From Bacteroidota bacterium (GTDB taxonomy: Bacteria > Bacteroidota > Bacteroidia > Flavobacteriales > Flavobacteriaceae): a DNA stretch of 64,000 nucleotides. This document shows, piece by piece, positions 37,708 to 49,022 of this stretch. Within the stretch, counting starts at the first letter, position 1. Each line of letters begins with the position of its first letter. The DNA is taken from positions 1,322-65,321 of the forward strand of contig JBCCIJ010000023.1 of assembly GCA_039028295.1 (NCBI GenBank), in the 5' to 3' direction. A model generated the notes under the pieces. The model was given only the letters and a program-made list of their open reading frames with translations. It was not told the DNA's origin and did not search any database. The translations under genes and the position numbers were made by a program.

Positions 37708-40488
37708 ATGAGCGTTTTCAGAAACACATTATTCCTGTACTTACTTTTCTCAGGGTTTTGCGTTTATGCGCAGCCCGATCTGAAGGCGAAGTATGATGCT
37801 ATCATTTCTTCGGAAGTTGATAATGCAAGCAAGCTAAAATTGGTAGAATCCCTAATCAACGAAAGCAACACTTACGATCCAGGCGATCTGGCGAATGTCT
37901 ACTACGATTTTTCTAAGTGGAACTTTAATCGAAACAAAGATGAAAAACGAGCAAAGCATTATGCCAAAAAAGAATTTCTGCTAAGAACTACAAAACTGTC
38001 AGAAGATAAAGATCCCATTCAACGTAATCTTTATAATTTGGGTCTAATGTACCGATATTCCAAACCACCGGATTATGATAATGCCATAGCCTATTTCGAT
38101 ACCCTTATTTCCATTTCAAAAGGAGATGAAATTAGACTTGGAAATGCTTATCGGGTTCGAGGCGATATTTATGACGCCCTGGGAGATTTTCAAAGAGCAT
38201 TGGAAAACTATTCCTACTCTGAGAATATTTTCAAAGGGAGAGATAGACCAGACCTTCAATTAAAAACTTTGATCAATGTTTCTGGAACCTATGCGTATTT
38301 GAGTGATCAGAATTATTTGGATTCCTTTATGGAAAATAAAGAGAAAATTGAAGCATTGCAAAACATGACGATGTCCAATAAGCAAGCCGCTATGTTGCAA
38401 TTGAACACCGGAGCTATGTTCAATACTACTTCCAATTTTCAAATGGCTTATGGACCAACTAAAAAAGCCTTGGCTCTTTTTGAAGAGATTGGTGATTCGG
38501 TTAATATATTTAAAAGTTTGAGTCTTATTGGGGTGTTGCAGAATAAGGATGAACACTTTTCCGAAGCGTCCAAAACCTTTGCAAGTGCCATGAAGTTTGC
38601 CGGCGGTAATAGGTTGCTCGAAAGCTCGGTCGCCAATAATCTGGGGGATATGTATCTAGGCGCTGGCGATTATCAACAGGCACTCTCCCATTATAATGCC
38701 GCCATTCTGGTGGTTCTTGGAGATGAAAGTATGAAGTCAGCACTCCATTTGCCGGTATTTGAGGATATTAGTCTTTCGCCTTTTAAGAAACGAATTTTTG
38801 CATATTTGAACGACTTGGCCAATTGTTGGCTCCTATATTTTGAACATACAGGCGATACAGGGCATTTGCTTCAGGCAGAAAAAACAATTTCTCTGGCAGA
38901 CCAGGTAGTCGATGCGTTGTTTTTTGAAAGTCGGGAGGAAATATCAAAACTATCTTGGCGAGAAAAGGCATCGCAATTATACATCAAAGGAGTTACGGTT
39001 GCCTTTCGTTTAGAGAAACCAGAGGCGGCACTTTATTTTATGGAAAAGAATAAAGGATTGTTATTATTGGAGAATATAAATAATGTCAAAGCGAGGCAGG
39101 ATGCGAAGATACCAATAGCCACAGTTGAAAGAGAACATAAATTGCTAAATTCGATTAAAACATTACAACTATCTCTAGCCAAAAACAATATAAATAACAG
39201 CACTTCTTTGCAAAGGGATAGTCTAAAGAATCAAATATTTTCATTAAAAAGAGACTACAGTGTGTTCATCGATTCGCTGGAAACCAGTTACCCGTCCTAC
39301 GTTAAATTCAAGAAGGAATTGGAAATTGAATCGGTAGAAAGCATCCGACAGAAACTTGCTGAAAACGAACGGGTGGTTGCCTATGCCCTTGGCGATTCTT
39401 TGGGATATGCCTTGCTCTTGACCAGGGACAAGCTGGAACTTAAACAGCTGCCTATTCCTGTTGCTGAATTAAATATTGAGGTGGAAGTTTTTAGAGACTA
39501 TTTGCTAAAACCCTTTACAACAAAAGGAGATGCTTTAGAATTTCAATTGGCCTCCACGCAGTTGTTCGAATGGCTATTCCCCTTTGATAACTTCGAGCTA
39601 ATGATGGAGGAAGCCCGCCTCATAATTATCCCGGATGGAATGCTTCAATCCATTCCATTCGATGCTTTAACTTATAGCAGTGATCTCAATTTGTCGAATG
39701 CATATGTTCTATCCAAATGTGAGGTTCTCTATAAATATTCACTTTCGATCGGATCGCGAATAAATTTGCTTTTACCTACTAAGGGGAATAGTCCGGTTGG
39801 ATTTTTATTGAATCAATTCAGCAATGACTATGAAATTCCATTGTCAGGTTCATTGAAGGAGGCGGATGCTATTAAGCCTTTCTATGGCAAACATATTTTT
39901 AGTGACACTTTAGCTTCAAAGCAATCGTTTTTGGAACAATTTGACGTTAACTCTCTCATTCATATTTCCACGCATGGTGGGATTAGTGATAGTGGTCCTT
40001 GGCTGGCATTTTATGACGAACACTTACTTCTTGATGAATTATATTTTCTGAAGAATCAAAAAGAATTAGTTGTATTAAGCGCTTGCAAAACGTCGGCGGG
40101 TGAGTATAAAAAAGGAGAAGGAACGTTCAGCATTGCCAGAGGCTTTATCAAAGCTGGAGTTAAAAGCGTATTGTCTACATTATGGGATGTCAACGAAAAA
40201 GCGAGCTTCGAAATTATTTCAGCCTTTTACGAAAATATGGAAACAGGCGATCGTAAATCGGAGGCACTTAGAGACTCGAAGCTGGGATATTTACAACGGC
40301 ATCAAAACACCAGTGAGGCCTCACCTTATTATTGGAGCGGGTTTACTATTACAGGAGACAATGAACCCATCGACGCTTTTTCCAATAGTCGATGGGGTGG
40401 CATTGTTACTACACTGTTAATTGGTTTGACGGTACTGGCCGGATTCATGTTCTTCAGAAGGAAAAGGACCAAAGCACAGATTACCTAA
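37708..40488 (+). CDS. TPR + CHAT (caspase HetF-associated) protease with signal peptide and C-terminal TM
   Basis: TPR array; LIIIPDGMLQSIPFDAL, IHISTHG (His), LVVLSACKTS (Cys), LSTLWDV, SPYYWSGF; C-terminal TM plus RRKR. Confidence 0.92.
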   Translation: MSVFRNTLFLYLLFSGFCVYAQPDLKAKYDAIISSEVDNASKLKLVESLINESNTYDPGDLANVYYDFSKWNFNRNKDEKRAKHYAKKEFLLRTTKLSEDKDPIQRNLYNLGLMYRYSKPPDYDNAIAYFDTLISISKGDEIRLGNAYRVRGDIYDALGDFQRALENYSYSENIFKGRDRPDLQLKTLINVSGTYAYLSDQNYLDSFMENKEKIEALQNMTMSNKQAAMLQLNTGAMFNTTSNFQMAYGPTKKALALFEEIGDSVNIFKSLSLIGVLQNKDEHFSEASKTFASAMKFAGGNRLLESSVANNLGDMYLGAGDYQQALSHYNAAILVVLGDESMKSALHLPVFEDISLSPFKKRIFAYLNDLANCWLLYFEHTGDTGHLLQAEKTISLADQVVDALFFESREEISKLSWREKASQLYIKGVTVAFRLEKPEAALYFMEKNKGLLLLENINNVKARQDAKIPIATVEREHKLLNSIKTLQLSLAKNNINNSTSLQRDSLKNQIFSLKRDYSVFIDSLETSYPSYVKFKKELEIESVESIRQKLAENERVVAYALGDSLGYALLLTRDKLELKQLPIPVAELNIEVEVFRDYLLKPFTTKGDALEFQLASTQLFEWLFPFDNFELMMEEARLIIIPDGMLQSIPFDALTYSSDLNLSNAYVLSKCEVLYKYSLSIGSRINLLLPTKGNSPVGFLLNQFSNDYEIPLSGSLKEADAIKPFYGKHIFSDTLASKQSFLEQFDVNSLIHISTHGGISDSGPWLAFYDEHLLLDELYFLKNQKELVVLSACKTSAGEYKKGEGTFSIARGFIKAGVKSVLSTLWDVNEKASFEIISAFYENMETGDRKSEALRDSKLGYLQRHQNTSEASPYYWSGFTITGDNEPIDAFSNSRWGGIVTTLLIGLTVLAGFMFFRRKRTKAQIT

Positions 40489-40848
40489 AACCAATAGGTT
40501 CCTTTTTAGCCGTTGTTTGGCCCTATAAAGTCCTGCAACTTTCCCGGCAACACCTGCCAGGAACACCAGGATCAAAATTACCGGTAGCACTGCCTTATTT
40601 ATTTCCGAAGTATCCCTTAGTATAAATAGGTAAGCCAGACCTAAAAAACCAGCACTTATCATGGCAAGAGCCCCACTCGAACACCCACAATCAAAAAGAT
40701 CTCTTTCTAGTCTGTGTTCCCATTTCTTGGCTTCCGTTTTGCCAAGAATTTTATGGAAATGCTCATCCAATTGAATATGTTCAAAATGCTCATTTTTAGC
40801 CCTACCAAGTTGCAACAGATCGTCGTATGTTTTGACTACGTACTCCAT
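40417..40848 (-). CDS. Small two-TM hypothetical protein with a CGC motif
   Basis: ORF 3 nt downstream of the CxxW gene; FDCGCSSGA followed by two hydrophobic helices. Confidence 0.6.
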   Translation of the reverse strand: MEYVVKTYDDLLQLGRAKNEHFEHIQLDEHFHKILGKTEAKKWEHRLERDLFDCGCSSGALAMISAGFLGLAYLFILRDTSEINKAVLPVILILVFLAGVAGKVAGLYRAKQRLKRNLLVLGNLCFGPFPSEEHESGQYRQTN

Positions 40849-40851
40849 GAT

Positions 40852-41853
40852 CTATCGCCACCAGCATAGCATTATCAACTTCAATATAAAGAACCAGATC
40901 GCACATACGATGGTTACGATCCATGCCCATAGGTAGCAAAAGAAAGTAACTATGGTAACCCAAAGAGTGCAAAGTCGCTCGACTATCCACGCCCAGGCGA
41001 TACAGGTGGTAAAGGTAATCCATGTCCAGGCGTCGCAAATCCAGGTAGTTACATAGGTCCATCCAATGCAAATCCATCTAAGCGTCCAATGCCATGAGGA
41101 ACAGGTTCTTCGTGTAGAGGAACTCCAACTAGCGCACCTACGTTGTCTGGTTATGCGGTTGGCCACACAAGTGAGAATCCTTTTAATAAACCAGTCTCTG
41201 CAAGCTTTTGATTCGCGTCTTTGCCATCCGAGACAAGTTAGTTTCCAATTGGCGATCCATCTCAGACAATCCCTTTCCCAAAGGAAAACCCATCTACAAT
41301 ATAAATGACGCCAGTATTCGAACCAGGGTTGAAATAACCATAAAACAAAGTATAAGAAACTAATAATAGAAAAAAGAATCCAGAAAAATAGGGTCCATCC
41401 GGAGGTGCCTATCGCTCCCAAGATCTCACCTATCAAAAGCGCGATGCTTCCCAGCACAAAAATTACAAAGGTAATTACCGTAGGTGGGGGAGGTGCCACG
41501 GGCTTCTTTTCCCACCAGGCCATGCTCATAAGAACGAGTCCGTATGCTAGGAAAAAGACCGCTTCGCCACCTAATAACCATTGAGCTGCAGGAGACAAAA
41601 AGTTGGAAATCGTTTGTTGCAATCCTACTTCTTGATAGGTTTGTACAATGGCTTGTAAATGTTCTTGAAGCCCCGAATAAACAATATACCCTACTACTAA
41701 CGCCCATAAGGTTAGAGCAATTCGCTTGTAGTATTTTTTATAATTTGAACTTTCTATCCACGAATTATCTGTAAATGGAATTTCATTTGGATCTGTTTGT
41801 GACGTTTCGTCTTGCTGTGAATTAGGTTCTAATTCGTTGTCATTTTCAGCCAT
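40852..41853 (-). CDS. Membrane protein with a C-terminal array of 11-residue CxxW repeats
   Basis: About 4 N-terminal TM helices; 14 Cys in the last ~150 aa, 11 consecutive spacings of exactly 11 aa. Confidence 0.8.
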   Translation of the reverse strand: MAENDNELEPNSQQDETSQTDPNEIPFTDNSWIESSNYKKYYKRIALTLWALVVGYIVYSGLQEHLQAIVQTYQEVGLQQTISNFLSPAAQWLLGGEAVFFLAYGLVLMSMAWWEKKPVAPPPPTVITFVIFVLGSIALLIGEILGAIGTSGWTLFFWILFSIISFLYFVLWLFQPWFEYWRHLYCRWVFLWERDCLRWIANWKLTCLGWQRRESKACRDWFIKRILTCVANRITRQRRCASWSSSTRRTCSSWHWTLRWICIGWTYVTTWICDAWTWITFTTCIAWAWIVERLCTLWVTIVTFFCYLWAWIVTIVCAIWFFILKLIMLCWWR

Positions 41854-42057
41854 AATCTTGAAATTTATTGGTTGTTCAGATAAAAATAATCAACTATAGT
41901 CGTTCGTTTTAGGGGTAATTACCTGTTTTTTAGCTATTTAAAAACCCCTTTTTTAAAACGGTTTAACCGTAATTCATCATCAGACTTTCGGATTTTGTGC
42001 AACTATATACAAGCGGTGACGGGGAGGAATAATGCGTCAGATGTTAGATATTTTTTA

Positions 42058-43170
42058 TTAAAAGAAGGGGGGTATTCCCAGACAGGACGCCAGAGCGTTT
42101 GCCGCATCCTTAAAGGCATCCAATCTTCTAATTATTATGATAACACCATGACTAGCCGGACTTCCTAAGGCTTCCAGGACGGCATCTTTAGCAGCTCTGA
42201 ACGCTATTAGTTCTGTAGAGCATCTCATTCCGTTACGAGGATGATTTTCAATGTGATTTTCGATCGCTTCGCTCACAGTTTCTACCGCGTCAACGAGATC
42301 GGCGATAGCGGCCATTAATATTCTATAGGCAATGAATGCCGCTACCGCAATTAGAGCGATGATGGCTAAAATTAATAGAATGGGCCCCAAGGGAATAACT
42401 ATGGGTGCCAATGCCGGAAGTGCTGCGGCTTGAGGGATCCTTTGAATAGAGTTCTCTGTAGCACTGGTTCTGATCTCCCGGGTATCGGCAACCTCTTGGT
42501 TTACCTCTGGACTTTGTTGAATGGTATGGGTAAGCTCATGTGCGATGAGTTTTTTTCCACTCTGGGACGAAGTATTGTATTCGTTCTTATTAAAGTAAAT
42601 ATCAGATCCATTGGCAAACGCCCTTGCTCCCAATTGTTCATTCATTTGCACTGCCGTGGCATCATTATGAACGCGTACATTCTCAAAACTTGCACCAAAA
42701 CCTGATTCCATTTCAGCTTTAGTGTTTTTTTCTAACGGCTGTCCCTTCCCCTTTGTACTTTTTAGTTGACTTTCGAGCTCTAGATTATTTTTATCTTCAT
42801 TTTCTTTAGGGATGGCACCGTTACTTTGAATGGCGGGTTTCCGCATAATAGCTGTCCCATCTTGTTGGATTTCTTTTTTGCTTATCTGCTCTTCCTGTTG
42901 GCATTGAGGACATTCGGTTTTTTCTGAAGTAGCCTCTTCTTTCTCCTTGGCTTTTTCGACCATGCTGTTGGCCAGTGCTTTGGCCTTACTGTCATGTTTG
43001 CTTTTGGGTTGATCTTCTTTTAATTTAGGTTGAATTGTAGTTGAAGGAAAGAATGAGGCGCTCTCATTTTTTGATAACAACCATTGGTTTTCTTCTGCTT
43101 TTTTTTGGAAGAAAAGATGGGCTGGTGATGTACCTGGAGTACTGTAGCTGCTTTTTGCGAATGCTCTCAT
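42058..43170 (-). CDS. DUF4157 (eCIS core domain) protein with a hydrophobic segment and small C-terminal domain
   Basis: GQPL..MESGFGASFENVRVHND..ARAFANGSDIYF..LIAHELTHTIQQ; IQPKL, IMRK and IQR motifs. Confidence 0.88.
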   Translation of the reverse strand: MRAFAKSSYSTPGTSPAHLFFQKKAEENQWLLSKNESASFFPSTTIQPKLKEDQPKSKHDSKAKALANSMVEKAKEKEEATSEKTECPQCQQEEQISKKEIQQDGTAIMRKPAIQSNGAIPKENEDKNNLELESQLKSTKGKGQPLEKNTKAEMESGFGASFENVRVHNDATAVQMNEQLGARAFANGSDIYFNKNEYNTSSQSGKKLIAHELTHTIQQSPEVNQEVADTREIRTSATENSIQRIPQAAALPALAPIVIPLGPILLILAIIALIAVAAFIAYRILMAAIADLVDAVETVSEAIENHIENHPRNGMRCSTELIAFRAAKDAVLEALGSPASHGVIIIIRRLDAFKDAANALASCLGIPPFF

Positions 43171-43414
43171 AATACTTCATACTTCCTTCTACTATTAAAG
43201 TAAAAGAGTGTTTTAAAACTATTAAAATAAGATGCGTTTATACCTGGGGAAACACTGCTTTTATTCTAATGAAACCCCTTTTTTTTCATAGGTAAAATCC
43301 TCTAAACCTTATCGTTGTTTGAAGATGGTACTATAATTAGGGTTTTTGGGGAGTCTATTTTGTTGTAACTTTAAGAGCTTAAGCCTTAGGGGCACTCAAA
43401 TTGTGACCGGCAAA

Positions 43415-44269
43415 ATGCTCGATGATACCATGAATTACCAATACTCCAATTCTTTAGAGAAAAGTGACTTACTGTTGACCACTCTTGAAATCGCAAAGGA
43501 GCAGGGACTTCTTAGCGGCAAAGACTTTTTCAAGATCATCTGGGCAAAAGATGGCGATATTTCCTTCGGAATTGACCATTATCGTATCCACATCGAAAAG
43601 AATAGTGTCTTTTTTTGTACACCGCTCAACGAAATTATGCTCAATGAAAATATTGAAGGGGCTGTAGTTTACCTTTTTAATCGGGAGTTTTATTGCATTC
43701 GGGATCATGACAGTGAGGTGTCCTGCAACGGATTTTTATTTTTAGGATCCTCACTCCCTATCATCATCGATCTGAATGAGAAAGAACAAAAAAGTTTTGC
43801 ACTACTTCATAGCTTCTTTGTAGAGGAATTTAAAAATACCGATAACATTCAAGGCGAAATGCTGTTGGTGCTTTTAAAACGTTTGATCATCACTTCGGTT
43901 CGAATTGCGAGAAAAACATTGCCCGAGGCAGACATGCCTCAATCCAAGTTGGATATGATCAGAAAATTTAATTTACTGGTTGAGGCTCATTTTAGAGAGA
44001 AACATAAGGTAAGCGATTATGCCGAAATGCTGCATATTTCGGCCAAGTCATTATCCAACTTATTTTTGAAATATTACTCGAAATCTCCCCTAAAGGTGAT
44101 TGGAGAACGTATTTGTTTGGAGGGCCAGCGGCTACTGCGATTTTCCGACCAAAATATGAATGAGATTTCCGATACCTTAGGGTTTCTAGAACCCTCTCAT
44201 TTCTCTAAATTTTTTAAAAAACACACAGGACTTTCTCCAATAGCCTATCGTCGAAAAAATAAGATGTGA
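43415..44269 (+). CDS. AraC family regulator (start uncertain, 43346-43430)
   Basis: HKVSDYAEMLHISAKSL..EISDTLGFLEPSHFSKFFKKHTG. Confidence 0.9.
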   Translation: MLDDTMNYQYSNSLEKSDLLLTTLEIAKEQGLLSGKDFFKIIWAKDGDISFGIDHYRIHIEKNSVFFCTPLNEIMLNENIEGAVVYLFNREFYCIRDHDSEVSCNGFLFLGSSLPIIIDLNEKEQKSFALLHSFFVEEFKNTDNIQGEMLLVLLKRLIITSVRIARKTLPEADMPQSKLDMIRKFNLLVEAHFREKHKVSDYAEMLHISAKSLSNLFLKYYSKSPLKVIGERICLEGQRLLRFSDQNMNEISDTLGFLEPSHFSKFFKKHTGLSPIAYRRKNKM

Positions 44270-44425
44270 GGAAAAATGTACAATTTTGCCTTATTGGTAT
44301 ATGGGCGTTATGATACAAATTTATTATGCTAATTGAATATTGGGCCATGGATGGTTTATTCAGAATAAAGAAAAATATGCAAACTACAAGGAAGAATGTT
44401 CAACTAACAATGTGACTATCCTTCC

Positions 44426-44433
44426 TATTTTTG
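44426..44433 (+). promoter_or_regulatory. -7 box (TATTTTTG) for the msrB operon
   Basis: Matches TAnnTTTG 36 nt upstream of the ATG at 44469. Confidence 0.5.
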
Positions 44434-44468
44434 CGTCATTGAAAACAATTAAAAGAAAGGAAAACAAA

Positions 44469-44915
44469 ATGCTAACATGGAAAGACGTTATCAATTTCTC
44501 AGTACAGGGCAACCCACGGCCTGATCGCCGAGTGGAAAAGACGGAGGCCCAATGGCAAGCCATTCTCACTCCTGAACAATTCAGAATTACTAGAAGAAAG
44601 GGTACGGAGAGACCTCATTCCGGGGCTTTATGCAGTATTTATGAAGCAGGCAAATACCACTGTATTTGTTGTAATACCCCCTTGTTCGATTCGACTATTA
44701 AGTTCAATTCCGGTACGGGATGGCCTAGTTTTACCCAGCCCATTAAAGAGAACGCGATCAAATATGAAAAGGACACCCAATTTGGGATGGTTCGAGTAGA
44801 GGTTATGTGCAATACTTGCGACGGACATTTGGGACATGTCTTTCCAGATGGTCCGGAGCCTAGCGGATTGCGCTATTGTATAAATTCAGAATCTATGAAA
44901 ATAGAAACCCAATAG
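44469..44915 (+). CDS. msrB: Peptide-methionine (R)-S-oxide reductase (start moved to 44469)
   Basis: RKGTERP, YHCICC, KFNSGTGWPSF, RVEVMCNTCDGHLGHVFPDGP, RYCINSES. Confidence 0.97.
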   Translation: MLTWKDVINFSVQGNPRPDRRVEKTEAQWQAILTPEQFRITRRKGTERPHSGALCSIYEAGKYHCICCNTPLFDSTIKFNSGTGWPSFTQPIKENAIKYEKDTQFGMVRVEVMCNTCDGHLGHVFPDGPEPSGLRYCINSESMKIETQ

Positions 44916-44935
44916 TTTAAAAGAAAGGAAAAGTA

Positions 44936-45490
44936 ATGGAAGTAAGAAAAGAAATAATGACTGTGGGCGGAGGATGTTTTTGGTGTATAGAGGCGGTCTT
45001 TAATGAAGTGAAAGGTGTAGAGAAAGTGATTTCGGGCTATACAGGAGGCGATGTTCCCGGCCGACCCACTTACCGAGAAGTATGCTCCGGCCTTACAGGC
45101 TGTGCGGAAGTGGTACAGGTATCCTTTGATCCTGAAAAAATAAGCTACGAAGATCTGTTGGTTATATTTATGACCAGTCACGACCCTACAACACTTAACA
45201 GACAAGGCGCTGATGCAGGTACTCAATATCGCTCGGTGATCTATTATCACAATGAAGATCAAAGAGCAATAGTTAATGAAGTGGTAAAACAAATGGCACC
45301 CTATTTCAATGACCCGATTGTCACCGAAATAAGCCCGGCAGAAGAATTTTATGAAGCGGAAGAGCACCACCAGGAGTATTATAAGAACAATCGATTGCAA
45401 GGATATTGTCGGGTAGTTATTGACCCTAAATTAACAAAGCTACGGGCTATGCATGCCGATAAATTGAAAGGGAACGAACATAATGGATAG
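44936..45490 (+). CDS. msrA: Peptide-methionine (S)-S-oxide reductase
   Basis: GGGCFWCIE, SGYTGG, HDPTTLNRQGADAGTQYRS, AEEHHQEYY. Confidence 0.97.
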   Translation: MEVRKEIMTVGGGCFWCIEAVFNEVKGVEKVISGYTGGDVPGRPTYREVCSGLTGCAEVVQVSFDPEKISYEDLLVIFMTSHDPTTLNRQGADAGTQYRSVIYYHNEDQRAIVNEVVKQMAPYFNDPIVTEISPAEEFYEAEEHHQEYYKNNRLQGYCRVVIDPKLTKLRAMHADKLKGNEHNG

Positions 45491-45977
45491 AAGGGATAAC
45501 ATGGAAAATGAAATTATAAGAGCCAAGGAGTTTGAAGTAAAAGACTGGATTGACGCCAACGGAAATGTAACTGAACCGATACGATTATCCGATTATAAGG
45601 GAAAGTTCAAAGTGATCTATTGCTTTCAAAGTTGGTGCCCGGGCTGTCATAGTAAGGGCTTACCCGATCTTAAAAAAATGGTGGGCGCCTTAGAAGGAAA
45701 TGAAAAGGTTGCTTTTTTAGCTATTCAGACCGTCTTTGAAGGCCATGAAGAAAACACCTATGAGAAGATGTTAGAAACCCAAAAACATTACGATTTAAAA
45801 ATTCCGTTTGGGCATGACGCCGGCAATGATGGGAAATCACGTTCCAATATCATGACCAATTATCAAACAGGAGGGACGCCCTGGTTTATATTAATAGATA
45901 AACACGATGCCGTAGTATTTGCCGATTTCCATCTAAACGTAGACGGTGCCATTCAATTTTTAAAGGAGTTAAAATAA
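45483..45977 (+). CDS. Thioredoxin-fold redoxin (TlpA/AhpC-TSA-like); start may be 45501
   Basis: FQSWCPGCH (CxxC), GGTPWFILID (cis-Pro). Confidence 0.85.
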   Translation: MDRRDNMENEIIRAKEFEVKDWIDANGNVTEPIRLSDYKGKFKVIYCFQSWCPGCHSKGLPDLKKMVGALEGNEKVAFLAIQTVFEGHEENTYEKMLETQKHYDLKIPFGHDAGNDGKSRSNIMTNYQTGGTPWFILIDKHDAVVFADFHLNVDGAIQFLKELK

Positions 45978-46510
45978 TGCTGGAGGGAATCCCAAAAATA
46001 AAGTTGTATGGCGCAGATGGCTGTCATAAAACAAGATACTACCAATTGCTTTTGGCGAAGCGAAACCTTCCCTTCGAGTTTTTGGATGTTGAAATAAATG
46101 AAGATCACGCGGTCGAACTGCGTGGTCTTTATGAAAATGGAAAACTAAACTTTCCTACCATTACCATTGGAGCAAAAAAACTTCGAAACCCTACTCAGGA
46201 GGAACTGGATAAATGGATCAATAAATTAATTCCTCAACAATTGGAACTTGTGCATGATGAAGCTCAACAACAATTTGTGATGGATATTAATGGAGAGCAC
46301 GCAAGGGTGGAATACCAGGTAAAAAATGATGTGCTATATTTGATTCATTCTGAAGTACCTTACGCTTTGAGAGGAAGGGGTATTGGGAAGGTTTTGGTTG
46401 AAAAGACCTTTAAAAAATTAACCGAGGATGGTTATAAAGCCGTGGCAGTTTGCAGTTATATAAAAGCAGTAGCAAGACGAAGCGAACATTGGAAACAAAT
46501 TATCGACTAG
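45977..46510 (+). CDS. Glutaredoxin-like domain fused to a YjdJ-type GNAT acetyltransferase
   Basis: KLYGADGCHKT..NFPTI (Grx fold); LIHSEVPYALRGRGIGKVL..AVCSYI (GNAT). Confidence 0.8.
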   Translation: MLEGIPKIKLYGADGCHKTRYYQLLLAKRNLPFEFLDVEINEDHAVELRGLYENGKLNFPTITIGAKKLRNPTQEELDKWINKLIPQQLELVHDEAQQQFVMDINGEHARVEYQVKNDVLYLIHSEVPYALRGRGIGKVLVEKTFKKLTEDGYKAVAVCSYIKAVARRSEHWKQIID

Positions 46511-46519
46511 ACGGTCATT

Positions 46520-48082
46520 ATGAAACTGAATATCAAAGATACATTCACTGCGGAATTACCTGCGGATCCGATTCGGGAGAATACCCGACGTCAGGTGCAT
46601 AGAGCCTGTTATTCTTTCGTCGAACCCAAATTGGTTCCTGCAGCTAAAATAGTGCATGTTTCATCGGAAATGAGCGACGCGTTGGGTATTTCAGAAGAGG
46701 ACATTACTTCCGAAGCATTCAAAAATACCTTTACGGGAAACAGCCTTTTACCCGGCACAAAGCCCTATGCGATGTGCTACGGAGGTCATCAATTTGGTAA
46801 TTGGGCCGGACAATTGGGAGATGGTCGTGCCATTAATTTGACCGAAGTGGAACATAACGATTTGCGGTGGATCATACAATTAAAAGGGGCTGGTGAAACG
46901 CCCTATTCCCGTACTGCCGATGGTTTGGCCGTATTACGTTCGTCCATTAGGGAGTATCTATGCAGTGAAGCCATGTATCATTTGGGTGTGCCAACAACGC
47001 GTGCGCTTTCTTTAGCTCTTTCAGGTGAGAAGGTGCTAAGGGATGTTTTATATAATGGCAATGCGGCTTATGAAAAAGGAGCCATTGTCTCTCGCGTGGC
47101 CCCCTCATTTTTGCGATTTGGAAATTACGAGATTTTTGCAGCTCGACAGGATACGGAAACGCTGAAAAGGCTAGTAGATTATAGCATTTCAAAGCTGTTC
47201 CCGCATTTAGGGGAACCTTCGAAAGAGGCGTACGTTGCTTTTTTTAAGGAAGTTGCTGACCTTAGTTTGAATATGGTCATCCACTGGCAACGTGTAGGTT
47301 TTGTACATGGTGTAATGAACACGGATAATATGTCCATTTTAGGATTAACCATTGATTACGGGCCTTACGGGTGGTTAGAGGGCTATGATCCAGGATGGAC
47401 GCCCAATACCACCGATGCCCAAAATAAGCGCTATCGTTATGGGAGTCAGCCAGAGATAGTGTTATGGAATTTATATCAATTGGCGAATGCCTTGTACCCT
47501 TTAGTTGAAGAAGCCGAGGGTTTTGAAACGGTTTTGAGTAATTATAGAACAGATTATACGGTTCAATATTTGCAGATGATGCGCTCTAAAATCGGGCTTT
47601 TTTCCGAAGGCGAAAATGATCCTTTGCTTGTAAAGGACTTGGAAACCATTTTGCAGTTGACAGAGACCGATATGACGTTATTCTTTCGAAGTTTGAGCGA
47701 TTTCAGAAAAGGGGATGCCTCAAAAGGTCTGGAAGTCGTTAAAGATGCATTTTATGTTCCCAATGAGGTGAGCGATAGTATTGCCCAGCAATGGAGGGAA
47801 TGGTTTGCACGCTATAGTGAGCGTTTGGAGAAAGAGGCACTGTCTGATGCTGAAAGAAGAGAAAAAATGAATGCGATCAACCCCAAATACGTACTTCGGA
47901 ATTATATGGCTCAACTTGCCATTGACGCGGCAGATAAAGGAGATTATTCTGTTATTGATGAATTATTTCAGTTGCTAAAACAGCCCTATAGTGAACAAAA
48001 AGAGCTGGAGAAATGGTACGTAAAACGACCCGATTGGGCACGTCATAAAGTAGGCTGCTCTATGTTGTCCTGTAGTTCATAG
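46520..48082 (+). CDS. selO: SelO/YdiU protein adenylyltransferase
   Basis: GHQFG.WAGQLGDGRA, QLKGAGETPYSR.ADG.AVLRSSIREYL.SEAM, HGVMNTDN, DYGPYG; C-terminus CSMLSCSS (no in-frame TGA). Confidence 0.95.
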   Translation: MKLNIKDTFTAELPADPIRENTRRQVHRACYSFVEPKLVPAAKIVHVSSEMSDALGISEEDITSEAFKNTFTGNSLLPGTKPYAMCYGGHQFGNWAGQLGDGRAINLTEVEHNDLRWIIQLKGAGETPYSRTADGLAVLRSSIREYLCSEAMYHLGVPTTRALSLALSGEKVLRDVLYNGNAAYEKGAIVSRVAPSFLRFGNYEIFAARQDTETLKRLVDYSISKLFPHLGEPSKEAYVAFFKEVADLSLNMVIHWQRVGFVHGVMNTDNMSILGLTIDYGPYGWLEGYDPGWTPNTTDAQNKRYRYGSQPEIVLWNLYQLANALYPLVEEAEGFETVLSNYRTDYTVQYLQMMRSKIGLFSEGENDPLLVKDLETILQLTETDMTLFFRSLSDFRKGDASKGLEVVKDAFYVPNEVSDSIAQQWREWFARYSERLEKEALSDAERREKMNAINPKYVLRNYMAQLAIDAADKGDYSVIDELFQLLKQPYSEQKELEKWYVKRPDWARHKVGCSMLSCSS

Positions 48083-48104
48083 ATTTCATCTAATTCATAC
48101 AATT

Positions 48105-48497
48105 ATGCAAGAGTGGTATTTACCCATTACAATTTTACCTGGTTTAGGGATGCTTATTTTATCAACCACCAGTCAAATGATGGCTTTGAGTAGCGAGATA
48201 TCTGGTTTGTTGGAAAATAAATGTTCTCCTTTTCAGCATTTGGTCTCGGATAAGAAGTTGAAACAATTAGGGCTGTTGACCAGAGCGAGTGTATTGCTCT
48301 ACCTTGCTACGGGAGCCTATGTATTATCTGGAATTTTAGGGGCATTGTTAGACGGAAATTCATTTTTCGATCTTCCTAGTTTGACCCTGTATTTGGGGAC
48401 TATTTTTACTTTTATGGCTATCGTATTGTTGATTATTTATGCTTTTAGAGCGGTTGCCATTCGAAAATTGCAGTTTGAGAACAACCATAATTTATAA
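48105..48497 (+). CDS. Small three-TM membrane protein (DUF2721-like)
   Basis: ILPGLGMLILSTT and three hydrophobic helices. Confidence 0.55.
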   Translation: MQEWYLPITILPGLGMLILSTTSQMMALSSEISGLLENKCSPFQHLVSDKKLKQLGLLTRASVLLYLATGAYVLSGILGALLDGNSFFDLPSLTLYLGTIFTFMAIVLLIIYAFRAVAIRKLQFENNHNL

Positions 48498-48500
48498 CGG

Positions 48501-49022
48501 GTGGGGAGGATTCAGAAAATTGGTTTTGGTGGTGGGTGCCACTGGTGTACCGAAGCGGTTTTTCAATCTTTAATCGGGGTTGAACAGGTGGAGCAAGGTT
48601 GGATTGCCTCTGAAGGAGAAGCCGCTACTTTTTCCGAAGCGGTTATTGTGCATTACCGTCCTGAGGAGATTGCTCTGGCCGTCCTGGTGGAAATTCATTT
48701 GTACACTCACAAAAGCACCTCCCAGCACAGCATGCGGGAAAAATACCGTTCAGCTATCTATTATTTTGACCATGGAGTGAAGGAATCCTTGTCCTGCATT
48801 TTGGAACAATTGAACCCTCAATTTGACCATCAGTTGATCACTCAAATACTACCTTTCACCAATTTCAAGGCTTCGAGGGAAGCTCTTCAAAATTACTATT
48901 ATTCAAATCCGAAGAAACCGTTTTGTGAGACTTTCATCAATCCGAAATTGAAACTTTTGTTACAGCGGTTTTCCGAATATGCAGACCATGTTAATTTGGA
49001 ACATTTGAATAAACGCCCTTAA
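48501..49022 (+). CDS. msrA: Second, divergent MsrA-like methionine sulfoxide reductase
   Basis: GGGCHWCTEAVF, KYRSAIY, QNYY, PFCETFINPKL; GTG start. Confidence 0.75.
   Translation: MGRIQKIGFGGGCHWCTEAVFQSLIGVEQVEQGWIASEGEAATFSEAVIVHYRPEEIALAVLVEIHLYTHKSTSQHSMREKYRSAIYYFDHGVKESLSCILEQLNPQFDHQLITQILPFTNFKASREALQNYYYSNPKKPFCETFINPKLKLLLQRFSEYADHVNLEHLNKRP

Follow-up and report, generated by a model that had tools for sequence, protein, structure and literature searches.

CHCH proteins (Cox17, Cox19, COA6, Mic19) are helix-turn-helix proteins with twin Cx9C or Cx9C-Cx10C motifs, in which nested cysteines face each other about three helical turns apart. These small soluble proteins of the eukaryotic intermembrane space carry two cysteine rungs with demonstrated disulfides, and their hairpin is acted on by Mia40/CHCHD4, which involves a CPC motif. 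In apolipoproteins, alpha-synuclein and perilipins, 11-mer (hendecad, 11/3) amphipathic repeats lie on lipid surfaces. Here, we analyzed two adjacent genes in a 64,000-nucleotide stretch of DNA (hereafter called the window) from a Bacteroidota bacterium (assembly GCA_039028295.1, contig JBCCIJ010000023.1). The first gene encodes a membrane protein with a C-terminal ladder of regularly spaced cysteines (ladder protein), and the second one a small membrane protein with an invariant CGC motif (partner). Like CHCH proteins, the ladder combines a hairpin with nested facing cysteines and a separate CxC protein. However, it involves 2–11 rungs in different family members, a strict 11-residue period and one hydrophobic arm, it is bacterial and it lacks a targeting signal, and the CGC protein differs from Mia40 in being a two-transmembrane (2-TM) protein that is predicted to face the cytoplasm. 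The CHCH family model of Pfam did not match the ladder protein, which has seven rungs with Cx10C spacing compared with two Cx9C motifs. With the hendecad lipid-surface proteins, the ladder shares the exact 11-residue period that gives a straight helix with a constant hydrophobic face, but those proteins are single helices without cysteines, whereas the ladder has a second, polar helix zipped to the first one by cysteines at each repeat and a co-encoded membrane protein. Sequence comparisons place the ladder protein, as a divergent member, in a two-gene module that is widespread but has not been described. The window protein is the 4-TM variant of this module, in which the ladder is joined to a four-helix membrane domain instead of an enzyme.

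The 14 cysteines of the ladder protein (residues 186, 196, 207, 218, 229, 240, 251, 262, 273, 284, 295, 306, 317, and 330) are spaced by 10 residues, then eleven times by 11 residues and finally by 13 residues, and 11 of them are part of a CxxW motif. The longest run of equal spacings comprises 11 intervals, compared with a maximum of 5 when the 148-residue tail was shuffled 200,000 times. Tandem Repeats Finder did not find any DNA tandem repeat in the ladder gene and thus, the 11-residue period is maintained at the protein level. For structural modeling, AlphaFold2 was run with a six-sequence alignment. It predicted two helices of about 77 residues each (residues 175–251 and 256–332) with a per-residue confidence (pLDDT) above 90. 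These helices are joined at SSWH and form a hairpin of about 100 Å, the turn of which is located between C7 (C251) and C8 (C262). When this model was compared by Foldseek with the PDB, nothing specific was found; the best match (E-value 0.69) belonged to generic long helical hairpins such as those of alpha-pore-forming toxins. A preliminary description of this gene, prepared from the sequence alone, had listed about four TM helices followed by a strict Cys/Trp ladder with 14 cysteines and 11 CxxW motifs, and the translation, the shuffling experiment and the predicted helices bear this out. The contrast between a basic first and a hydrophobic second arm, which was also listed there, is reflected by the net charges of the two arms (Table 1) and by the outer face of the hydrophobic arm.

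Table 1. Features of the ladder–partner locus (positions refer to the window)
Feature	Position	Strand	Remarks
Ladder protein gene	40852..41853	-	333 aa; acidic N-terminal tail, 4 TM helices, C-terminal hairpin with cysteine rungs
N-terminal hydrophilic tail, aa 1–43	41725..41853	-	acidic, basic YKKYYK at its end just before TM1; translation
Four-TM domain, aa 44–176	41326..41724	-	AlphaFold2 helices and subfamily alignment
Intramembrane Glu97	41563-41565	-	invariant E column of the subfamily alignment
Intramembrane Glu143	41425-41427	-	invariant E column of the subfamily alignment
Junction motif LWLFQPWFEYWRHLYCRWVF, aa 171–190	41284..41343	-	best-conserved stretch among close homologues
Basic/polar hairpin arm, aa 186–251	41101..41298	-	Cys 1–7, net charge +12
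Turn SSWHWTLRWI, aa 252–261	41071..41100	-	between C251 and C262; AlphaFold2 helix break 252–255
Hydrophobic hairpin arm, aa 262–333	40855..41070	-	Cys 8–14, net charge +1
Partner gene	40417..40848	-	143 aa; next open reading frame downstream, with its ATG 1 nt behind the stop codon of the ladder gene
Partner invariant CGC, aa 54–56 (DCGC, aa 53–56)	40681-40689	-
Variable slot outside the conserved pair	41975..43429	-	holds the DUF4157/eCIS_core gene 42058-43170

To identify relatives of the ladder protein, we first carried out a word-indexed search of 5.8 billion proteins, which returned only six sequences. In these homologues, all 14 cysteines are invariant down to 33% sequence identity. An exhaustive HMMER search with a profile of six sequences against 1.84 billion representatives yielded 185 clusters at E ≤ 1e-3, including 59 at E ≤ 1e-10, and most of the 185 clusters matched the ladder part of the profile only. 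In P0006, the ladder is located at the N-terminus ahead of an HExxH domain, which indicates that it is a separable module. Throughout the family, it is found at the extreme N-terminus (78 proteins), at the C-terminus (44 proteins) or internally (21 proteins), and a cysteine spacing of 11 residues is the modal value (877 of 1118 gaps). Typical members carry an acidic arm of CxxxxDxGYxxC repeats, a four-cysteine tip (CCxWWPCSWxC) and a hydrophobic arm of CVAWxWVxNxV repeats. The window protein differs from this pattern by its lack of an enzyme domain, its basic rather than acidic polar arm and its simple turn, which is devoid of the four-cysteine CCxWWPCSW tip. A hidden Markov model (HMM) built from 39 distant cores of the CCxWWPCSW type alone matched the window protein with an E-value of 5.4e-15, and this was the only match in the genome. 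The ladder gene is present as a single copy in this 3.87-Mb genome.

Within the 4-TM subfamily, conservation extends beyond the cysteines. The window protein shares the junction motif LWLFQPWFEYWRHLYCRWVF without any change with five homologues that have a 4-TM domain (P0001, P0002, P0003, P0004, P0005), and the SSWHW of the turn is conserved among close homologues. Glu97 and Glu143 are invariant in 15 relatives with identities down to about 20%. Buried acidic pairs are usually a sign that ions or protons are bound or that a salt bridge is formed with a partner helix, and by analogy the two glutamates may serve either of these functions. One of the homologues (P0004, 257 aa, metagenome contig) has a 4-TM part that is identical to that of P0002 except for one substitution, but a frameshift right after CRWVF removes the ladder; either the gene is a pseudogene or the assembly is faulty at this site.

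Public family collections do not describe the ladder. Neither Pfam (no match at E ≤ 0.1) nor NCBIfam contains a family for the window protein, and when 90 family members were compared with Pfam and 10 with NCBIfam, only the fused enzyme domains were recognized and no model covered the ladder. These domains include Phosphoesterase (PF04185, 12 of 90), Kelch/galactose-oxidase-like, GH16, GH1, subtilase, Lipase_3, and M10/M12/M64 peptidase domains. Family members with database names are annotated as hypothetical or are truncated without the ladder. For the Caenibius phosphoesterase, one RefSeq model begins 11 residues later and one GenBank model omits the whole ladder. Culturable bacteria with a ladder-phosphoesterase include Caenibius tardaugens and Caulobacter sp. 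Root1455. A literature search that covered cysteine ladders and zippers, hendecads, the Cx10C motif and the strings WWPCSW and CVAWTW returned nothing on the ladder family. Thus, the statement of the preliminary description that no family could be assigned holds for described families, since none matches in Pfam, NCBIfam, the PDB or the literature, but the profile search uncovered a large undescribed family (185 clusters) with an obligate-looking partner gene.

When we scanned 185,579 bacterial and archaeal species genomes (one genome per species), the tip motif was found in 140 genomes. They belong to more than 10 phyla (Bacteroidota, Actinomycetota, Acidobacteriota, Proteobacteria, Verrucomicrobiota, Chloroflexota, Gemmatimonadota, Nitrospirota, and others). 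Metagenome-assembled genomes (MAGs) assigned to Bacteroidales and Bifidobacteriaceae, which are mostly anaerobic groups, also carry the family. In the bacterial family of the window, only 1 of 151 genomes contains a clear copy, which is the window genome itself, and one more genome has a marginal, stop-interrupted match (E-value 3.6e-4). In one metagenomic locus, the ladder–partner pair is located beside an integrase.

The reading frame was assessed by comparison with a homologue that is 82% identical. The two genes differ at 49, 23, and 110 sites at codon positions 1, 2, and 3, respectively. This predominance of third-position substitutions identifies the minus strand of 40852-41853 as the coding one, as the preliminary description had assumed, and the pattern points to purifying selection on the ladder gene. 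The opposite-strand frame 41066-41308 (+) was rejected as a coding gene. Frames on this strand contain 11–21 stop codons in the window and in the syntenic metagenome contig L003 and 6–31 in L004, and their longest open stretches vary from homologue to homologue. Opposite the ladder repeats of other loci (L025-L104), open frames of 130–190 codons form clusters in 28 and 33 loci. These frames are shadow open reading frames resulting from the composition of the repeats, and gene callers could mis-annotate them.

To explore whether the two arms pair with each other, we selected 150 proteins in which the turn was located independently by the C-C-x4-C-x3-C pattern. The number of rungs per arm varied between 2 and 11, and the two arms carried equal numbers in 120 proteins and differed by one in 27 (r = 0.93). 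When arms were permuted between proteins, a mean of 32 equal-rung matches was obtained and this number never exceeded 52. An irregular 7-residue spacing occurred in 25 proteins and in 23 of them, the other arm showed it at the corresponding rung. Similarly, in the window's own subfamily, a polar arm with one additional repeat goes along with a hydrophobic arm that also has one more. The mirrored rung numbers and the mirrored irregular spacings indicate an in-register antiparallel pairing, in which each cysteine faces its nested counterpart. Together with the AlphaFold2 helices, this covariation substantiates the symmetry about C7/C8 that had been proposed in the preliminary description.

These data also bear on the possibility that the ladder protein is an ordinary polytopic membrane protein, the hydrophobic half of which forms three or four more TM helices, so that the Cys/Trp period would be a packing motif and no hairpin would exist. 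The last 70 residues or so are hydrophobic enough for TM helices, and in the closest subfamily this arm consists almost purely of V/L/I/F. However, independent TM helices would not need to track the rung number and the irregular spacings of the polar arm, as is seen in the 150 proteins. Moreover, hydrophobic arms of up to 121 residues do not contain any turn-forming residues and AlphaFold2 predicts one continuous helix with a pLDDT above 90. We therefore consider a simple polytopic arrangement highly improbable.

Sorting the residues by hendecad position showed that the seam between the helices involves W/G/C/A/Y on the polar arm and W/S/C/T/N on the hydrophobic arm, so that small residues are flanked by aromatic ones. 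The outer faces are formed by E/Q/D/N (polar arm) and V/W/I/A/V/V (hydrophobic arm). The hairpin thus has a strongly polar side and a strongly hydrophobic one, with tryptophans at both edges. Taken together, the anatomy of the system (a real gene, the periodicity, the in-register hairpin, the family membership and the linkage to the partner) can be regarded as very probable.

The open reading frame that directly follows the ladder gene had not been mentioned in the preliminary description of 40852-41853. Its product consists of an N-terminal alpha/beta domain, the CGC motif, two TM helices and a basic tail of the GK...AR.RL type. In the AlphaFold2 model (pLDDT 89.5), which was computed from an alignment of 69 partner sequences, CGC is located in a loop just before TM1 (residues 56–79), which is followed by a short loop and by TM2 together with a long basic helix (residues 87–126). 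A homologue of the partner follows the ladder gene in all close loci (L003, L004, L007, L008) and also in L019, the locus of a more distantly related 4-TM protein. The same family (xCGCxxGA, TM1, TM2 ending with GK, AR.RL) also flanks very different ladder proteins, such as those of L021 and L024. Among 80 genome loci spanning more than 10 phyla, an HMM of eight partners had a match in 64, always on the strand of the ladder gene and usually less than 100 nt away. Here, we observed a dependence on architecture. When more protein followed the ladder, the partner was present in 62 of 67 loci, but when the ladder ended a protein with two TM helices of its own, it was present in only 2 of 13. In the window genome, the partner HMM matched 40417-40848 as the sole hit with an E-value of 1e-56. 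The CGC motif is invariant in 69 partner sequences and the lysine at the end of TM2 is nearly so. No third conserved neighboring gene was found in the 80 loci. Thus, the neighbor survey that the preliminary description had suggested points to the conserved pair (40417-41853) as the functional unit of the window, separate from the neighboring DUF4157 gene.

Searches with the partner did not retrieve any significant match among PDB structures or a viral structure library (both by Foldseek), PDB sequence profiles, Pfam, NCBIfam and the literature, and a PHROGs search of partner sequences gave nothing consistent. For the window partner, Pfam returned DUF2157 only, with 18.8 bits compared with a cut-off of 32.4. 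The partner-less ladder proteins include a subfamily with an N-terminal DUF4157-like zincin domain (hhalign probability 82%, E-value 1e-5, around HExxH), two TM helices and a C-terminal ladder, but the 2-TM region of these proteins did not show any homology signal with the partner. Proteins of this subfamily (P0011, P0017, P0018, P0025, and others) have a CxC motif of their own (DPCSC) about 10 residues before HExxH; it is present in 11 of 18 sequences and its first cysteine is invariant. With about 110–150 amino acids, two TM helices and a basic C-terminal tail, and with its location beside signal-less enzymes, the partner resembles small 2-TM holins, which are likewise small proteins with at least two TM helices and a charged C-terminus and which are also known from the holin-dependent export of enzymes without signal peptides. 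In contrast to holins, it has an N-terminal alpha/beta domain and no endolysin partner; to our knowledge, neither such a domain nor an invariant CGC occurs in holins. A holin function of the partner was rejected, since weak sub-threshold matches to Holin-X (PF07332) were obtained for only 7 of 69 sequences (best E-value 2.7e-4) and for none of the 10 actinobacterial partners. A cysteine-repeat substrate of the RiPP (ribosomally synthesized and post-translationally modified peptide) or radical-SAM type was also considered and rejected. No maturase is adjacent to the pair, the neighboring genes in the window encode CHAT, DUF4157, and AraC proteins, and the 80 loci share no third gene.

To define the side of the membrane on which the pair is located, we compared the distribution of positive charges. 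On average, the partner contains 3.2 lysine and arginine residues in the 15-residue stretch ahead of CGC, 0.4 in the loop between the TM helices and 4.5 after TM2, which predicts an N-in/C-in topology with CGC at the cytoplasmic interface. For the 15 members of the 4-TM subfamily, mean values of 2.9 for the N-terminal flank and of 1.7 for the ten residues preceding the first ladder cysteine were calculated, and loops 1 and 3 are not basic. In the phosphoesterase fusions, basic clusters follow the hydrophobic arm, and in zincin-2TM-ladder and S8-ladder proteins, the ladder is located on the same side as the signal-less N-terminal domains. No signal peptide was detected before the ladder or the N-terminal enzyme in about 140 representatives and 80 genome-encoded proteins. 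The charge distribution and the lack of signal peptides place the assembly of ladder and partner at the cytoplasmic face, and a cytoplasmic-face location of both the ladder and CGC is therefore inferred from the sequences. The charge of the polar arm was dropped as a guide to the compartment because its sign varies among family members; most N-terminal ladders have a polar arm with a net negative charge, and the value for the window protein is +12.

On this background, the module can be explained as a cytoplasmic-face device consisting of a Cx10C ladder hairpin of adjustable length (2–11 rungs) and a 2-TM CGC protein. The ladder protein of the window would be an inner-membrane protein, the last 150 residues of which form a single antiparallel two-helix hairpin, and the seven cysteines of the basic arm would face the seven cysteines of the hydrophobic arm with one pair per 11-residue (three-turn) repeat. 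The hairpin may act as a rigid two-faced plank in the plane of the membrane, an orientation suggested by its composition. Its hydrophobic arm, with the V/W/I/A/V/V outer face and the tryptophan edges, would be buried in one leaflet and the polar arm would lie on top. The small-residue seam (G/C/A vs. S/C/T) may draw the helices unusually close to each other and a cysteine pair would brace each rung. The partner would reside in the same membrane with its CGC at the same interface, where it may dock, assemble or regulate the plank. Instead of forming constitutive disulfides, the rungs may be thiolate- or metal-bridged, or oxidized only under certain conditions. In other bacteria, the plank would tether enzymes without signal peptides; in the window protein, it is joined to no enzyme but to a 4-TM domain with two invariant buried glutamates. 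Taken as a whole, we assign this explanation a probability of roughly 0.45, and the in-plane, partner-docked mechanism at the cytoplasmic face should be considered tentative.

Several observations argue against this explanation. The pLDDT of the 4-TM part of the ladder protein is only 50–70. The fused enzymes (PLC/AcpA-type phosphoesterase, GH16, subtilase, M64, lipases, galactose-oxidase-like proteins) are of types that are normally extracytoplasmic. Conserved, even-numbered and pairwise facing cysteines are a classic disulfide signature and disulfides do not normally persist in the cytoplasm, and two-cysteine sites are poor structural metal sites. Finally, lateral bundling of the hydrophobic arms into a soluble or membrane-bound oligomer would fit the same data.

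Some of these points would be accommodated if the hairpin were extracytoplasmic and stapled by disulfides. According to this scenario, it crosses the membrane independently of Sec and Tat signals, perhaps via an oligomer of the holin-like partner, and up to seven nested disulfides lock a rod that anchors or displays the attached domain, as a bacterial analogue of the Mia40 (CPC) trapping of twin-Cx9C hairpins. Paired, invariant and even-numbered cysteines with mirrored spacing are expected for such a structure, the small-residue seam permits the close helix approach that disulfides need, and CHCH proteins with Cx9C/Cx10C motifs provide a structural precedent. The fused enzymes are of secreted types but lack the usual signal peptides, and in the phospholipase C (PLC) fusions the ladder sits where PlcH/PlcN-type enzymes normally have their Tat signal. 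The weak Holin-X matches of 7 of the 69 partners point in the same direction, but the window partner is not among the matching sequences and no lytic enzyme is a conserved neighbor. The predicted topology is more difficult to reconcile with this scenario. The prediction places the CGC and both termini of the partner in the cytoplasm, and a basic post-TM4 segment precedes the base of the ladder. Signal peptides are absent from all members, and the hydrophobic arm is followed by basic clusters. In addition, the zincin-2TM-ladder and S8-ladder proteins have their ladder on the side of signal-less N-terminal domains, and the family occurs in MAGs of Bacteroidales and Bifidobacteriaceae; such anaerobes are usually poor in oxidative folding. 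On balance, we consider the extracytoplasmic arrangement rather unlikely. The suggestion of up to seven nested disulfides, which had been made in the preliminary description, was thus retained as far as the facing cysteine pairs in register are concerned, but the predicted cytoplasmic topology and the lack of signal peptides argue against the disulfides themselves, which are somewhat disfavored.

A related scenario is that ladder and CGC protein constitute a two-component system which, in more than 10 phyla, directs signal-less enzymes (phosphoesterases, glycosidases, proteases, lipases, Cu-oxidase-like proteins) to the cytoplasmic membrane or through it. Zippering of the length-tunable hairpin, one cysteine rung after the other, would then be the irreversible step, comparable to the oxidative trapping of CHCH proteins by Mia40, and the 4-TM form of the window would be a stand-alone membrane version. 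This proposal is speculative and we judge it to be unlikely.

If the module is indeed what the sequences suggest, several implications would follow. At least 140 species genomes would carry a self-contained two-gene device, which is attached to enzymes that otherwise need a signal peptide and the ladder of which is truncated or ignored by annotation pipelines. Predictions of the secretome and of the membrane proteome would change for many soil and marine bacteria. The known membrane anchors or targeting signals would be joined by a further class, and protein engineering would gain a rigid modular rod with a length that is set by the number of repeats.

Alternatively, the cysteines may serve as a thiophilic metal or redox device, in which the rungs, alone or together with the CGC of the partner, bind Cu(I), zinc or Fe-S for storage, delivery or sensing. 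Cysteine-lined helical bundles of this kind are known from the Csp copper-storage proteins, which are comparable in principle. Both cysteine sets are predicted to be cytoplasmic, CxC and two-cysteine motifs are typical thiolate ligands, and the CC-x4-C-x3-C tip clusters four cysteines. Moreover, two galactose-oxidase-like fusions (P0067, P0086), which would be copper enzymes, have His-rich stretches upstream of the ladder. However, the rung positions do not conserve His, Asp or Met ligands besides cysteine, most of the fused enzymes are neither copper nor Fe-S enzymes, no metal transporter or chaperone is a conserved neighbor, and there is no similarity to Csp or metallothionein families. A metal or redox function as the primary role of the ladder therefore appears improbable. 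The His-rich stretches of P0067 and P0086 (HGHGGHG, HHAHNGG...HEDHDDPAHVH) precede an internal ladder, and the C-terminal domain of both proteins is a putative copper oxidase.

The gene immediately upstream of the ladder gene (42058-43170) encodes a DUF4157/eCIS_core protein (PF13699, E-value 1.6e-28). DUF4157 marks toxins of extracellular contractile injection systems (eCIS) or their neighbors (PMC8213781). The ladder protein might thus be a membrane-damaging toxin that is tied to the DUF4157 gene, and the 2-TM partner might be its immunity protein. This idea gains from the two eCIS loci and ten DUF4157 genes of the genome, from the family members that fuse a DUF4157-like zincin to two TM helices and a ladder (hhalign 82%), and from the sporadic occurrence of the pair (clear copy in 1 of 151 family genomes, an integrase beside one locus). 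However, the syntenic contig L003 keeps the ladder, the partner and the 120-nt upstream region, but has a divergently oriented Metallophos gene in the DUF4157 slot. Since the slot is replaced while the pair stays, DUF4157 is not part of the unit. The two eCIS loci are located on contigs C1 and C10 and not on C23, and no gene of an eCIS, a type VI secretion system or another delivery system is conserved near the 80 family loci. Furthermore, the partner accompanies ladders on ordinary hydrolases (GH1, GH16), which is unlike an immunity protein that tracks a toxin domain. It is also conserved across phyla with an invariant CGC, whereas immunity proteins usually diversify. Taking both sides into account, there is little likelihood that the two genes form a toxin–immunity pair. 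The locus shares with eCIS-associated toxins the adjacent DUF4157 gene and, in some ladder proteins, the DUF4157-like zincin domain, but it is not an eCIS operon. An eCIS link as conserved feature was rejected on the basis of the marker positions, the 80 loci and the replaced slot. The DUF4157 adjacency noted in the preliminary description is therefore correct for the window but is not retained in L003, and the association with the pair is coincidental or at most loose.

The two eCIS loci were recognized by their Pvc16_N (DUF4255) markers on C1 (about 60–87 kb) and C10 (about 64–87 kb). Three DUF4157 genes are located near the first marker and one near the second, and five more are scattered over other contigs. 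The orphan copy of the window contains a zincin-like domain (aa 145–220), its own TM helix (approximately aa 255–285) and an 85-residue C-terminal domain, and may act as an effector or protease that is anchored in the membrane.

Positions 44340-49022, downstream of the AraC gene, comprise a cluster for the repair of thiol and methionine oxidation (MsrB, MsrA, an AhpC/TSA-like redoxin, an acetyltransferase, SelO, and a second MsrA). This cluster is syntenic in L003, but the ladder pairs of other loci do not have it as a neighbor and it is thus probably unrelated. On the other side of the pair, the plus strand (37708-40488) encodes a protein of 926 aa with tetratricopeptide repeats (TPR) and a caspase-like CHAT domain, which ends with a C-terminal TM helix and a basic tail. 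NCBIfam gave a weak match of this protein to the type III-E CRISPR TPR-CHAT protein Csx29, which was well below the cut-off. Its gene is convergent with the partner gene and the 3′ ends overlap by 72 nt (40417-40488); the corresponding overlap in L003 amounts to 57 nt.

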